DNA of 47,241 bases from Candidatus Taylorbacteria bacterium RIFCSPLOWO2_01_FULL_48_100 (GTDB lineage Bacteria; Patescibacteriota; Minisyncoccia; Phycocordibacterales; UBA10002), in NCBI GenBank assembly GCA_001821135.1, contig MHSA01000001.1, forward strand, positions 1 through 47,241, read 5' to 3'. Position 1 is the stretch's first letter, and the number at the start of each line of letters is the position of its first letter. Below the pieces are notes generated by a model. The model was not told where the DNA came from and made no database searches. It saw only the letters and a list, made by a program, of their open reading frames with translations. This document shows positions 20,276 through 26,562 of the stretch, piece after piece. A program made the position numbers and the translations under genes.

Positions 20276-20716
20276 ATGCAACTAAACACTTTACAACGGG
20301 TTCATCCGAATCAACGCTCCGCGCAAGTTGGGCGTGGTGGGAAGCGCGGTAAAACGAGCGGTCGCGGCGGCAAGGGGCAGACCGCGCGTGCAGGCAACAA
20401 GCCGCGCCCGGAGTTCCGCGACGCACTGATGAAGATACCGAAACAGCGCGGGCGCGGCACAAACACCTTTAAATCATTTCAGCCAAGACCGGATATTGTG
20501 TCCATTGCCGATCTTGAACGCGCGTTTTCTCATGGCGATACCGTTACGGCAGAGTCGCTTCTCGCAAAAGGGCTTATTCAGAAGCGCTCGGGGAATATGC
20601 CTCAAGTAAAAATTCTTGGAGACGGTGTTCTTACGAAGAAGCTCGCTGTGAGCGGCTGTGCCGCGTCGGCAAGCGCGCGGAAGAAAATAGAAGCGGCAGG
20701 AGGTTTAATCTCATGA
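20276..20716 (+). CDS. rplO: 50S ribosomal protein L15
   Basis: Start at MQLNTLQ inside ORF 20162-20716. Motif: VGRGGKRGKTSGRGGKGQ.AR.G. Confidence 0.93.
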   Translation: MQLNTLQRVHPNQRSAQVGRGGKRGKTSGRGGKGQTARAGNKPRPEFRDALMKIPKQRGRGTNTFKSFQPRPDIVSIADLERAFSHGDTVTAESLLAKGLIQKRSGNMPQVKILGDGVLTKKLAVSGCAASASARKKIEAAGGLIS

Positions 20717-21984
20717 CTTCTTTTTTACAAAAAGCAAAGCTTGTCTTTACCGATAAGGTGCTCCGCAAGCGCATTCTGTTTGTTGCCGGCGCGTTTGTGC
20801 TTTTCCGACTTCTTGCTTCCGTGCCAATTCCTGGGATTGACGAAACACGCCTCGCGCGCCTTCTGGAGGGCAATCAATTTCTTGGGCTTTTCAATATTTT
20901 CTCCGGCGGCGGGCTTGATAACCTCTCTATTGTTATGTTGGGAGTCGGCCCGTACATCACGGCCTCCATCATTATGCAGCTCTTGACGATGGTATTTCCA
21001 AAGCTCAAAGCACTATATCACGAAGAAGGGGAGCTCGGCAGAAAACGGTTTGCGCAATACTCGCGCCTTTTAACGCTTCCGCTCGCGCTAATTTCCAGTT
21101 TCGGATTTTTAGTTCTGCTTTCGCGGCAAGGCGTGCTCGGAGACCTGTCTTCTTTTGCAACACTTATAAATATGTCGCTGGTGGTTGCCGGCGCTTTCCT
21201 GCTTATGTGGATTGGCGAGCTCGCGACTGAGTTCGGCATCGGAAGCGGCGTATCGCTCATCATTTTTGCGGGCATTGTATCAGGAATCCCGAAAGGAATC
21301 ACAGCGCTTGCACTCTCTTTTGACCCATCGCAGATTCCGCTCTATGTAGCGTTTCTTGTTGCGGCGCTCGCAGTGATTTACGGTGTCGTGGTGGTGAGTG
21401 AGGCGGAACGACCTGTGCCGATAACTTACGCGAAGCGCGTGCGGGGGATGAAGCAATATGGCGGCGTATCTACCTACTTGCCCCTCCGCGTCAATCAGGC
21501 GGGTGTGATTCCGATTATCTTTGCGCTCTCCATTCTTTTGTTCCCGCAAATGATTTTGAGTTTTACGGCGAATGTAAGCAATCCGCTTGTGCAGAAAATT
21601 GCATCAACGCTTCTCGCCCTTTTCTCAAATGGATGGTTTTATTCCTCTTTGTACTTCCTGCTTGTGCTTGTCTTTACCTATTTTTATACCGCAGTTACCT
21701 TTGAGCCGGAATCGGTTGCGACCAATTTGCAAAAAAACGGAGCGTTCGTGCCGGGAGTTCGCCCAGGGCGCGCAACCGCAGAATATCTTTCTAAAATCGT
21801 AACGCGCATTACGCTTGTCGGAGCGGTATTCCTCGCGCTTGTTGCCGTGCTCCCTCTCGCGATGCAAGGAGTTACCGGAAACACCAACCTCGCTATCGGC
21901 GGCACCGCGCTCCTCATTGTCGTCTCCGTCGTGCTTGATTTGGTAAAGAAAATAGACGCGCAGGTCGCGATGCGAGAGTACTAG
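20713..21984 (+). CDS. secY: Preprotein translocase subunit SecY
   Basis: 423 aa with 10 TM helices. Motifs: GIDE...FSGGGLDNLSIVMLGVGPYITASIIMQLL, GELATEFGIGSGVSLIIFAGI. The ATGA start overlaps the rplO stop. Confidence 0.96.
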   Translation: MTSFLQKAKLVFTDKVLRKRILFVAGAFVLFRLLASVPIPGIDETRLARLLEGNQFLGLFNIFSGGGLDNLSIVMLGVGPYITASIIMQLLTMVFPKLKALYHEEGELGRKRFAQYSRLLTLPLALISSFGFLVLLSRQGVLGDLSSFATLINMSLVVAGAFLLMWIGELATEFGIGSGVSLIIFAGIVSGIPKGITALALSFDPSQIPLYVAFLVAALAVIYGVVVVSEAERPVPITYAKRVRGMKQYGGVSTYLPLRVNQAGVIPIIFALSILLFPQMILSFTANVSNPLVQKIASTLLALFSNGWFYSSLYFLLVLVFTYFYTAVTFEPESVATNLQKNGAFVPGVRPGRATAEYLSKIVTRITLVGAVFLALVAVLPLAMQGVTGNTNLAIGGTALLIVVSVVLDLVKKIDAQVAMREY

Positions 21985-23967: not shown

Positions 23968-24003
23968 TTATATCGCGGATTTTTGCTATACTTTTCTTTA
24001 TCT

Positions 24004-24231
24004 ATGGAAAATCGTATTTTTACGGCAATATATAAAAAGACGGGCGCGTGGATAAGCGCGTGGATTGAGGAAATTCCAGGTGTGAACACGCAAGGAAAGA
24101 CGCGAAAAGAAGCGCAGGAGAATCTAAAAGAAGCGCTCTTTTTGACTTTGGTTTCTCGTCGCGAACTTTCTAAATTGCAGCACAAGACGGGGTTGCATCG
24201 GCAACTCTTGCAAGTGCGCGTGCCCGCGTAA
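24004..24231 (+). CDS. hicB: HicB-like antitoxin (second module)
   Basis: Start at MENRIFTAIYKKTGAWISAWIEEIPGVNTQGKTRKEAQENLKEAL (UPF0150 pattern). hicA follows directly. Confidence 0.7.
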   Translation: MENRIFTAIYKKTGAWISAWIEEIPGVNTQGKTRKEAQENLKEALFLTLVSRRELSKLQHKTGLHRQLLQVRVPA

Positions 24232-24236
24232 TTGCT

Positions 24237-24434
24237 ATGAAACGGCGGGAACTCATAGCGCACCTTGAAGCAAATGGTTGTCTTTTGCTTCGTGAGGGTT
24301 CAAAACATTCAATGTACTTTCATAAAGGAAACCAGACGACATCCAGCGTGCCTCGCCACAACGAAGTTAATAATTTTCTTGCTAAAAAGATATGCAACGA
24401 CCTCGGTATTGATACATTTGGTATGAAAAAATAA
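24237..24434 (+). CDS. hicA: HicA-family toxin (second module)
   Basis: 65 aa. Motif: RELIAHLEANGCLLLREGSKHSMYFH.....TSSVPRHNEV. Confidence 0.8.
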   Translation: MKRRELIAHLEANGCLLLREGSKHSMYFHKGNQTTSSVPRHNEVNNFLAKKICNDLGIDTFGMKK

Positions 24435-24437
24435 CAC

Positions 24438-25049
24438 ATGAAAATCCCTCACCCAAAAACAGAACGGACACTAGTGCTCATAAAGCCTGACGGCGTTCAA
24501 CGCTCGCTTATCGGCGAAATTATCGGGCGCTACGAACGCTCGGGTCTCAAGCTTGCCGGGCTTAAGATGTGCATACCGACCGAGGCGCACATTGAAGAAC
24601 ATTATTCGTTGGACCCCGCGTGGCGGCGCGTGACGGGAGAGAAAACGATAAAGGGCTACGAAAGCAAAGGGCTCACCCCGCCATCGCGCGACCCGCTTGA
24701 GATTACCGCGCGCATTCTCGCGAACCTCAAAAAGTATCTTGCGAGCGGTCCTGTCATCGCAATGGCGTGGCAAGGTGCGCACGCGGTTGCTATTGTGCGT
24801 AAGCTGACCGGCGGTACCGAACCATTAACATCAGATGTAGGCACGATTCGCGGCGATTTTGTACTTGATTCCTACCAAATGTCGGACACAGACGGCAGGG
24901 CAGTGCGCAACCTCGTGCACGCCTCTGGCTCCGTTAAAGAAGCGGAAGCGGAACTTGCACACTGGTTTTCTAAAAAAGAATTGATTGGCTATCGCCTTAT
25001 TAGCGAGCAGATTTTGTACGATGTGAATCTGGACGGGTTGCTGGAATAA
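24438..25049 (+). CDS. ndk: Nucleoside diphosphate kinase (long form with an internal insertion)
   Basis: 203 aa. Motifs: ERTLVLIKPDGVQRSLIGEIIGRYE..GLKLAGLKM and the catalytic NLVHASGS. An insertion of about 50 aa separates the conserved blocks. Confidence 0.9.
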   Translation: MKIPHPKTERTLVLIKPDGVQRSLIGEIIGRYERSGLKLAGLKMCIPTEAHIEEHYSLDPAWRRVTGEKTIKGYESKGLTPPSRDPLEITARILANLKKYLASGPVIAMAWQGAHAVAIVRKLTGGTEPLTSDVGTIRGDFVLDSYQMSDTDGRAVRNLVHASGSVKEAEAELAHWFSKKELIGYRLISEQILYDVNLDGLLE

Positions 25050-25116
25050 CATTGTATTTGTGGTTGTTTTGTGATAGTTTGCAGGGTGGATTGTGAATTG
25101 TAACAAAAGGACAAAA

Positions 25117-25716
25117 ATGCAGACAAAAGCGCTTATTTTTGACGCAGACGGAATGGTTGTGCACGGGACGCGATTTAGTATCCGCTTGGAAAAGGAGTTC
25201 GGCATCTCAACTGAAATAACAGCTCCTTTTTTCCGAAACGAATTTCAACTATGCTTGATTGGGAAGATAGACCTCAAGGTAGCACTCGTTCCTTATCTGA
25301 GACAGTGGAATTGGAAGGGAAGTGTTGATGAATTTCTTCGTGTTTGGTTTGCTGATGAACACACACAAATAGACACACGCTTCGTGTCAATTATTGGACG
25401 TATAAGGGAAAAAGGAACACAGGTGCATCTCGCGACCAATAATGAGAAATACCGCATTCACTACCTCGTCGAGACGCGCGGTCTTGGAAAATGGTTTGAC
25501 GGCATTTTTTCTTCTGCAGACATTGGCGCTAAGAAAACTGATATCGGCTTCTGGAATCATATCTTCGTCCACTACTGCAGATTTTCCAAGAAATCAGTTA
25601 CTGTCTGGGATGACGATGAGGAAAATCTAAAAGTGGCAGAAGCTTTTGGTTTGTGTACTGAGCACTATAAGAATTTCGATGGTTTTGTTCAGAAAACCAA
25701 AATGTTTTTGGAATAG
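25117..25716 (+). CDS. HAD-superfamily hydrolase
   Basis: Start at MQTKALIFDADGMVV (DxDG motif I), preceded by aaagga. A later motif is HLATNNEK, and a C-terminal VWDDDEEN motif is present. Confidence 0.8.
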   Translation: MQTKALIFDADGMVVHGTRFSIRLEKEFGISTEITAPFFRNEFQLCLIGKIDLKVALVPYLRQWNWKGSVDEFLRVWFADEHTQIDTRFVSIIGRIREKGTQVHLATNNEKYRIHYLVETRGLGKWFDGIFSSADIGAKKTDIGFWNHIFVHYCRFSKKSVTVWDDDEENLKVAEAFGLCTEHYKNFDGFVQKTKMFLE

Positions 25717-25722
25717 CATGGA

Positions 25723-25750
25723 CTGCGAGCAAGTGCTCGCAGTTTTCTTT
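25723..25750 (+). terminator. Intrinsic terminator after the HAD gene
   Basis: ctgcgagc-aagt-gctcgcag followed by ttttctttt. Confidence 0.7.
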
Positions 25751-25763
25751 TGAATACGCAAGT

Positions 25764-26113
25764 TTAACGGATTCTAATGGTGTTTTCGGTGGCGACCGTG
25801 AATTTTCCGCTCAATTTTTCACCATGTTGTTTGAGCACACTCGCAATTACCGATGTGATATTTCCGTAGTTTTCTTTTTGGAGTCGCAGAAACAACACAC
25901 CGACATGTTGTTTGGAATCTCTAAAAACCAGCGTACCAAAATCTCGATCAAGCGTGACTATAATTCGTCTTTCTTAGCGCGTTTCAGAACGGAATGATCT
26001 GTCGCGCTAGAAGAATTCTCTAGAATACTTACCACATCAAAACCATTCCGGCGAAGATCTTGTGTGGTTCGCACTCCTATATTTTCATCAAGCAAAAGCC
26101 GCAACTTTTCCAT
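25764..26113 (-). pseudogene. DUF5615-type (PIN-like) toxin gene disrupted by a frameshift
   Basis: The N-terminal frame reads MEKLRLLLDENIGVRTTQDLRRNGFDVVSILENSSSATDHSVLKRAKKDEL and then stops. The C-terminal part (IIVTLDRDFGTLVF...GVLFLRLQ...) continues in another frame. The 350-nt span is not a multiple of 3. Confidence 0.65.
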
Positions 26114-26348
26114 GATATGTTGTTTTGAGCGGATACACTAGTTCTTCTTCAACGAGCGCCGCGGCATATTCAATAGCGGCCTGAATATCTTCGGTTTGCA
26201 GATTCGGATAATTTTCAAGGATTGTTTTCGGTTCCAGTCCTTGCGCCAACTGACGCAAAACAAGCTCCACTGTTATCCGTGTGCCTTTAACGACTGGCTT
26301 TCCAAGCATAATGTTTGGGTTTGTTTCAATGCGTTCGTTCATACACAC
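26088..26348 (-). CDS. DUF433-family antitoxin-like protein
   Basis: 86 aa. Motif: NPNIMLGKPVVKGTRITVELVLRQLAQG...ILENYPNLQTEDIQAAIEYA. It overlaps the start of the downstream DUF5615 remnant. Confidence 0.8.
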   Translation of the reverse strand: MCMNERIETNPNIMLGKPVVKGTRITVELVLRQLAQGLEPKTILENYPNLQTEDIQAAIEYAAALVEEELVYPLKTTYHGKVAAFA

Positions 26349-26418
26349 CTAATAGTAGAGGATTATATTATTTTAGTCAAACCGTGCTCTGACAGGCTAA
26401 TGGCGGATTAAATGCCCC

Positions 26419-26475
26419 CGCCTCATCTCCGAACAGATTTTGTATGATGTGAATCTGGACGGGTTGCTGGAGTAA
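26419..26475 (+). repeat. Orphan second copy of the ndk 3' end (57 bp)
   Basis: It matches 24993-25049 at 50 of 57 positions. Both copies translate to RLISEQILYDVNLDGLLE-stop, and all 7 differences are synonymous. Confidence 0.85.
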
Positions 26476-26490
26476 TTAATTCTTAACAGA

Positions 26491-26562
26491 TACGCCCGGA
26501 GGGACTCGAACCCCCAACAAATCGCGTATAAGGCGACTGCTCTACCATTGAGCTACGGGCGT
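26491..26562 (-). tRNA. tRNA with anticodon UAU (tRNA-Ile, AUA-reading type); CCA not encoded
   Basis: Manual cloverleaf: acceptor ACGCCCG/CGGGCGT, D arm GCTC-AATGGTA-GAGC, anticodon arm GTCGC-CTTATAC-GCGAT, variable loop TTGTT, T arm GGGGG-TTCGAGT-CCCTC, discriminator A. Confidence 0.85.

Follow-up and report, generated by a model that had tools for sequence, protein, structure and literature searches.

How did the 3' end of a housekeeping gene come to stand twice, with 1.37 kb of accessory genes in between, in an ultra-small genome of the Candidate Phyla Radiation (CPR)? The question is raised by ndk in contig MHSA01000001.1 (assembly GCA_001821135.1) of Candidatus Taylorbacteria bacterium RIFCSPLOWO2_01_FULL_48_100, positions 1-47,241 of which were analysed and are referred to below as the window. 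The gene is followed by an islet (25050-26418) with a HAD-type hydrolase gene and a toxin-antitoxin pair, then by a second, orphan copy of the last 57 nt of ndk, and then by a tRNA gene. The genome comprises 644,823 bp in 25 contigs with a marker-gene completeness of 100%. A first-pass annotation of the window had proposed that an element integrated into, or recombined at, the 3' end of ndk while supplying a replacement gene end. The results described here agree with that proposal: empty junctions in relatives and the colinearity of the orphan block make it very probable that foreign DNA recombined into the terminal 57 nt of ndk and carried a replacement end with it, all sub-mechanisms taken together.

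The recurrence of the 57-nt ndk end (copy 1, the working end, 24993-25049; copy 2, the orphan end, 26419-26475) was recovered by a repeat search of the window and by a self-BLAST of the genome, the two methods agreeing with each other and with the first-pass annotation. The copies are identical at 50 of 57 positions (88%) with a spacing of 1426 nt (E = 8e-12 in the self-BLAST), and the same self-BLAST revealed no third copy in the 645-kb genome. The longest perfect block that they share is 26 nt, and similarity to ndk breaks off abruptly on either side of the repeat, beginning at 26419 in the case of copy 2. Either copy translates to RLISEQILYDVNLDGLLE followed by a stop codon. Recomputation confirmed that the seven differences, at repeat positions 6, 9, 10, 11, 15, 27 and 54, are all synonymous (CTT/CTC, ATT/ATC, AGC/TCC, GAG/GAA, TAC/TAT and GAA/GAG), including the serine pair AGC/TCC, the interconversion of which takes two steps via non-serine codons. 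The chance that seven random substitutions would all be silent was estimated by simulation as P = 5e-6 with no transition bias and 2.4e-4 with a 4x bias. The orphan copy is not translatable as present, the in-frame open stretch being only 24 codons with no start codon. Upstream of 26419 no longer degraded ndk paralog was found; the start of the DUF433 gene is separated from the orphan copy by its 70-nt promoter region alone. Since the C-terminal tail is nearly invariant in the NDK proteins of the genus and the order, it is judged to be under strong purifying selection which, combined with seven differences that are all silent, indicates that both copies evolved as parts of functional ndk genes.

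Relatives were screened in 41 close genomes, 401 genomes of the order, 38 metagenome loci and a set of viral contigs; the count of 401 takes in the unpublished genome G267, on which no specific claim is built, and the genomes searched for second ndk ends are a sample. Orthologs of ndk were present in 40 of the 41 close genomes, and the gene order adk-map-ndk-tRNA-Ile-ftsH is common to the window and its nearest relatives. The closest relative for which DNA was at hand is the metagenome contig L042, with an NDK 95% identical to that of the window (84% in DNA), and G007 and G012 are relatives within the genus; whole ndk genes of the relatives used for comparison are 78-84% identical in DNA to that of the window. 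The CPR-type NDK proteins (that of the window and P0055-P0174) are approximately 200 aa in length, with an insertion of about 40-60 residues relative to the 135-position Pfam profile, which they match in two stretches; their tail, EQILYDVNLDG[LI]LE, is almost invariant throughout the order. The nearest of these proteins include P0055, at 99% identity.

The 'empty' ndk-tRNA junction that the first-pass annotation had suggested looking for was found in all three of these relatives. In L042 the ndk stop codon is followed by 11 nt and then by tRNA-Ile(UAU), and the corresponding gap is 26 nt in G007 and 52 nt in G012. Downstream, L042 is nearly identical to the window from 26563 on. The orphan copy, the spacer behind it, the tRNA gene and the downstream DNA form one block colinear with the junctions of L042, G007 and G012, a result indicating that 25050-26418 is an insertion that brought a replacement ndk end. 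The orphan copy thus stands where ndk ended in the ancestor, and at least part of the working end is imported. The tRNA gene reported earlier behind the orphan copy was identified as tRNA-Ile with ARAGORN. No duplicated tRNA sequence was found within the islet by the repeat search of the window or the genome self-comparison, and the tRNA gene is a neighbour of the insertion rather than its target. The start of copy 1 shows a 15-nt inverted similarity to the anticodon arm of the tRNA, which was dismissed as being at chance level and not kept in relatives.

A duplicated ndk end was found in none of the 41 and 401 genomes or the 38 metagenome loci. Two hits were returned for 7 genomes in the orphan-tail search of the 401; in each case the second hit was rejected as a weak match within an open frame (159-676 aa), either a second NDK-like gene or a chance resemblance. 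In G032 and G004, what looked like fragments of ndk was discounted because it sits at contig ends. The genome-wide self-comparison likewise yielded no other case in the genome of a gene end with an orphan copy of the ndk type. Contig C11 contains a 117-nt direct repeat of 87% identity (20576-20692 and 20972-21088), with one copy near the 3' end of a 261-aa open reading frame (ORF) and the second 280 nt downstream; it was rejected as a comparable case because the copies differ by many amino-acid changes (WNPxNRxVYLxWxYAxxCNPNNGARS-like motif).

Three further readings were weighed against these results. The direct orientation of the repeat and a distance of only 1.4 kb would suit a simple tandem duplication, either of the whole of ndk or of its end, followed by gene insertion and decay of the second copy. 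This is very unlikely, for a dead copy would have drifted otherwise than by seven silent changes that include the two-step AGC/TCC pair, no ndk remnant lies upstream of 26419, and relatives have a simple ndk-tRNA junction. The synonymous-only pattern excludes a recent local duplication followed by neutral decay and upholds the earlier view that the orphan copy derives from a functional, diverged allele. An assembly chimera of the ndk ends of two strains is a concern with a metagenome-assembled genome of 25 contigs when related ndk alleles co-occur in the same samples, but independent low-depth contigs from other studies bridge both junctions with zero differences: X14 record 11 (24899-25103) on the left, and X19 record 29 (26381-26549) and X10 record 6 (26171-26469) on the right. 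The contigs of these other runs were built with 31-mers, and the 26-nt longest identical block is therefore too short for a chimera in a 31-mer graph. Moreover, the stretch is present in 20 groundwater and soil runs from 11 studies, 9 of them with at least 92% of the sampled words, and a chimera is considered extremely improbable. Contigs of the four low-share runs derive from the same strain at approximately 3x depth; none of them skips the islet, contigs alone being no evidence of absence of excision or of strains without the islet. That the orphan copy serves the ndk-tRNA region as a conserved element, regulatory or structural, has the intact reading frame of that copy in its favour and nothing else, while the copy occurs in none of the approximately 440 related genomes or the 38 metagenome loci and is lacking from the closest relatives; the comparison refutes this role, which is hardly credible. 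Thus, neither of the findings that the first-pass annotation had set against its own proposal, a duplicated segment in relatives or a longer degraded paralog, was encountered.

The seven variable sites bear on which parts of the two copies are native. L042 agrees with copy 1 at repeat positions 9, 11 and 15, with copy 2 at positions 27 and 54, and with neither at the other two. Copy 1 differs from L042 at 2 sites in the first 15 nt and at 3 in the other 42 nt. If the left part of copy 1 is joined to the right part of copy 2, the resulting mosaic, which represents the presumed native end, is 3 sites off L042 and 5 off G012; the reciprocal mosaic is 8 and 9 sites off, respectively, and the extant copies 5-7. 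Both the pattern and its direction suggest one reciprocal crossover within CAGATTTTGTA, based on 5 informative sites with a chance P of about 0.1-0.2, such that the left part of copy 1 is probably native and the right part probably imported. A sliding comparison with L042 revealed no divergence breakpoint in ndk upstream of the repeat. The imported and native ends (50/57) are as similar to each other as are the ends among genus relatives, and RLIS-type tails are present in the related NDKs P0065 and P0072, results indicating that the donor was a near relative. A contig from the groundwater run X14 that corresponds to 24929-25019 of the window represents a second ndk allele with L042-like codons (CTA, GGC and TAT) beside the window's strain. 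The sample therefore contains close relatives that could donate or receive DNA.

The features of the locus are listed in Table 1.

Table 1. Features of the ndk locus, with positions in the window.
Feature	Position	Strand	Description
ndk	24438-25049	+	203 aa, intact; CPR-type NDK with conserved C-terminal tail; Pfam NDK E = 4.4e-35, NCBIfam NDK models
Repeat copy 1	24993-25049	+	Working ndk 3' end; attL-like
Putative crossover interval CAGATTTTGTA	25008-25018	+	Twin at 26434-26444; placed by the split of informative sites
Presumed imported spacer	25050-25116	+	67 nt; AAGGA ribosome-binding site 6 nt upstream of the HAD ATG
HAD-IA type hydrolase gene	25117-25716	+	199 aa, apparently intact; weak Pfam Hydrolase/HAD_2 matches
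Intrinsic-terminator-like hairpin and T-run	25720-25745 (whole feature to 25753)	+	Follows the HAD gene; 11 pairs, 6 G-C; tail TCTTTTGAAT
DUF5615 toxin-like gene	25764-26113	-	Single frameshift near 25958-25973; pieces 26113-25958 (N-terminal) and 25973-25764 (C-terminal)
DUF433 antitoxin-like gene	26088-26348	-	86 aa, intact; Pfam DUF433 E = 5e-23
Putative toxin-antitoxin promoter region	26349-26418	-	TTGACT-17-TACTAT at 26380-26352, consensus match only; right end of the presumed imported DNA
Repeat copy 2	26419-26475	+	Orphan ndk 3' end; attR-like; counterpart of icdC
Native ndk-tRNA spacer	26476-26490	.	TTAATTCTTAACA, similar to the L042 spacer ATAACTTACA
tRNA-Ile(UAU) gene	26491-26562	-	Anticodon TAT; ARAGORN; convergent with ndk; 15 nt past the stop codon of the orphan copy

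The first gene of the islet encodes a protein of the HAD-IA type, and its description in the first-pass annotation as having its own Shine-Dalgarno sequence and terminator proved correct. No terminator-like site was found between ndk and this gene (25050-25116), which is probably read through from, or co-transcribed with, ndk, and the 67-nt spacer matched nothing else in the genome and none of the fetched loci. The Pfam and NCBIfam scores of the HAD protein itself fall under the curated cut-offs. Its homologs, of 40-56% identity, carry PF13419/PF00702, and the residues D9, D11, T107, K140, D165 and D166 corresponding to motifs I-IV (DxD, T/S, K, DD) are invariant in the homolog alignment. No relative above 56% identity was detected among 5.8 billion proteins; relatives are present in 26 of the 401 genomes of the order. 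A second HAD-IA gene lies on contig C12 of the same genome (30144-30728), with 56% protein and 67% DNA identity to that of the islet and a low GC content at third codon positions (GC3) of 0.40. Within the genus, a relative was present in G013 alone, at 41% identity.

The two toxin-antitoxin genes adjoin and overlap, the antitoxin gene leading. The DUF433/DUF5615 pair named in the first-pass annotation was recovered insofar as both families were matched and DUF433 is intact; the frameshift in DUF5615 had escaped mention. The N-terminal piece of the latter matches profile positions 2-48 of 110 (E = 1.5e-7) and the C-terminal piece, in the other frame, positions 47-108 of 110 (E = 4.9e-9). The frameshifted sequence is identical in a contig of another run (X10 record 5). 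Since the toxin gene is frameshifted and only the antitoxin-like gene is intact, the pair appears to be now decaying. The nearest relatives of DUF433 in species-representative genomes belong to non-CPR phyla, at 45-67% identity. The GC content of the islet is 0.421 compared with a genome mean of 0.476 and with 0.53-0.54 in ndk and ftsH. This mild departure, to about the 10th percentile, only in part bears out an atypical composition, for which the first-pass annotation had proposed a comparison with the flanks. No DNA-level relative of the islet was present in any fetched locus, and the same islet was not found in another genome. Nor was a copy of it with an integrase attached, for which the first-pass annotation had proposed a search, encountered, the relatives of its genes reaching at most 56% (HAD) and 67% identity (DUF433, in other phyla).

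The interval between ndk and tRNA-Ile was found to differ among relatives. In G018 (L003, 521-1381) it contains another accessory gene, without a duplicated ndk end, the predicted product of which is a 286-aa multi-pass membrane protein with an NxxxDxxxD-like motif. The presence of a different gene in the same interval indicates that it is a variable, recurrent insertion spot, as judged from the genes that it holds. The tRNA-Ile(UAU) gene beside ndk itself occurs in two clearly different versions between conserved flanks, one of 71-72 nt in the window, G007, G012 and G018 and one of 74 nt in L042 (2487-2560), L043 (5626-5699) and L044 (5628-5701). The window and L042 have different versions despite near-identical downstream DNA, and the distribution of the versions is independent of ndk similarity, which suggests that the tRNA gene has been replaced in place by recombination. 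On the other side of ndk, directly upstream and between map and ndk, lies a HicB/HicA toxin-antitoxin pair (23983-24434) of patchy distribution: L042, G012, G007, G018 and G019 are without the pair, with 6-190 nt between map and ndk, and L043 aligns across the stretch. The GC3 of hicA is 0.38 versus 0.58 for ndk.

The genome encodes RecA (444 bits) and a ComEC Competence domain (168 bits). Natural competence and homologous recombination or integration have been demonstrated in cultivated Patescibacteria (PMC10633639). The mechanism that we prefer, with middling confidence, is uptake of DNA from a related strain present alongside, followed by RecA-mediated homologous recombination; where the crossover lay, which donor supplied the DNA, how it was taken up and which enzyme recombined it are all inferred. 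In the ancestor, ndk would have ended 11-50 nt before a convergent tRNA-Ile(UAU) gene. DNA of a related Parcubacteria lineage, comprising the last 19 codons of its own ndk, the HAD-IA gene and the DUF433/DUF5615 pair, would then have entered the chromosome by recombination within the terminal 57 nt of the resident gene. The outcome would be ndk with a hybrid, protein-identical end, followed by the HAD gene, the toxin-antitoxin pair, the displaced ndk end and the tRNA. Entry could have occurred by a Campbell-type single crossover of a circularised fragment, probably within CAGATTTTGTA, or by one-ended homology-facilitated illegitimate recombination (HFIR), in which homologous recombination at one end is accompanied by illegitimate joining at the other (PMC3240628). 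On either route the islet would not be self-mobile, and the toxin-antitoxin pair may formerly have stabilised the inserted piece. Homology-driven insertion is preferred because the event stands alone, an integrase and a family of elements at ndk both being absent, and because the donor end is that of a near relative, other exchanges are found nearby, genes for uptake and RecA are present, and competence is known from the cultivated members of the group.

Several points weigh against this mechanism. The homology is short (57 nt, 88%, longest perfect block 26 nt), near the lower limit for RecA-dependent exchange, and below the usual anchor lengths for Campbell-type or HFIR insertion. It stops exactly at the stop codon, as do att sites in gene ends, and a toxin-antitoxin pair, as this cargo is predicted to be, is typical of true mobile elements. 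The donor arrangement, ndk followed by the HAD gene, was seen at none of 58 ndk loci and 19 HAD loci. Finally, the mosaic signal consists of 5 informative sites (P about 0.1-0.2) compared with relatives whose whole ndk genes have 78-84% DNA identity, and so is no more than suggestive.

The main rival is a site-specific origin, a serious but less probable contender. The islet would then be a decayed integrative element, or an integrase-less cis-mobilisable one, with an attP that contained an ndk end, such that the gene was restored on integration as in the case of e14 and phage 21 in icd, and the two copies would be attL and attR; the integrase gene would later have been deleted or would have acted in trans from another element. 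Repeats that bracket foreign cargo, one of them completing the target gene, are as expected of such an element, as are the toxin-antitoxin cargo and a homology that breaks off exactly at the stop codon and is of insufficient length for RecA to exchange it efficiently. The mosaic is compatible with a crossover confined to one point, and within the shared block lies an inverted repeat, CAGATT-N12-AATCTG, a candidate core site noted on inspection of the sequence. A documented precedent is e14 with icd and icdC (PMC13626634). However, no recombinase or integrase gene was found in 25050-26418 among the ORFs or by profile search, as the first-pass annotation had already observed; the single tyrosine recombinase of the genome is Xer-like (XerC/D type) and lies on another contig, C13, and the genome contains no serine recombinase or resolvase-type enzyme. 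No other orphan ndk end and no cognate integrase-bearing element at ndk occurred in the relatives screened (41 and 401 genomes, 38 metagenome loci), and the viral contigs contained no such element, no ndk relative of this type, no HAD relative and no junction sequences. The cargo is without close relatives (at most 56% identity for HAD and 67% for DUF433), and the TAC/TAT difference falls within the putative overlap region. A further variant, in which the CPR-type ndk tail would serve as the att site for minimal cassettes of a class so far unrecognised, which lack an integrase and would be moved in trans, for instance by the Xer-like recombinase at CAGATT-N12-AATCTG, is unlikely; if true, it would be the first site-specific gene-cassette system described in Patescibacteria.

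The locus is of value chiefly as a clear case in which a minimal CPR genome gained genes at a recombination hot spot. Genomes of this kind are usually discussed in terms of gene loss, and the islet represents a clean, datable gain in one of only 645 kb, in which a housekeeping gene served as the entry point and was kept whole by an imported, protein-identical end. The ndk/tRNA-Ile interval tolerates insertions and exchanges, as seen from the islet in the window, the other gene in G018 and the swapped tRNA versions in other relatives. Taken with the recA and comEC genes, this variability suggests that these genomes are shaped by exchange with relatives living alongside. The short ndk homology may also offer a neutral landing site should such organisms become genetically tractable.

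Compared with known systems, the islet combines features of several. It resembles the cis-mobilisable elements (CIMEs), the att-flanked and integrase-less relatives of integrative and conjugative or integrative and mobilisable elements, in that cargo lies between att-like direct repeats at the 3' end of a gene. CIMEs, however, are defined by a cognate integrase-bearing element at the same att site, and the search of genomes and contigs revealed none at ndk. The likeness to Campbell-type or HFIR insertion lies in the short homology as the point of entry and the homologous segment left duplicated, in a host with RecA and ComEC. The cargo is like that of type II pairs of DUF433 (antitoxin-like) and DUF5615 (PIN-like toxin), with adjacent and overlapping genes, antitoxin first, and clear Pfam matches; it differs from intact pairs of this type by the one frameshift in the toxin gene.

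The closest parallel is provided by the E. coli prophage e14, which, like phage 21, extends into icd with a C-terminal pseudogene, icdC, at the far end (PMC13626634). In the passage of that source citing Hill et al. 1989, the two gene ends are described as differing mainly by synonymous or conservative changes. The e14 prophage is 15 kb in length with its own integrase and SOS-induced excision, whereas the islet is 1.37 kb without a recombinase, no excised form was seen among the contigs, and its host is not E. coli but a Parcubacteria bacterium with a genome of 645 kb. Because the defining integrase is missing, the islet is not classed as an element of the e14/icd type; it acts like, or is the scar of, such an insertion. 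In both systems the foreign DNA sits in the end of a housekeeping gene, a replacement end keeps that gene functional and the displaced end persists as an orphan fragment; direct repeats bracket the islet, and the target site is empty in L042, G007 and G012. The type of structure is already well known from e14/icd, and the islet, ordinary apart from its CPR host, leaves the current understanding of such insertions unchanged.

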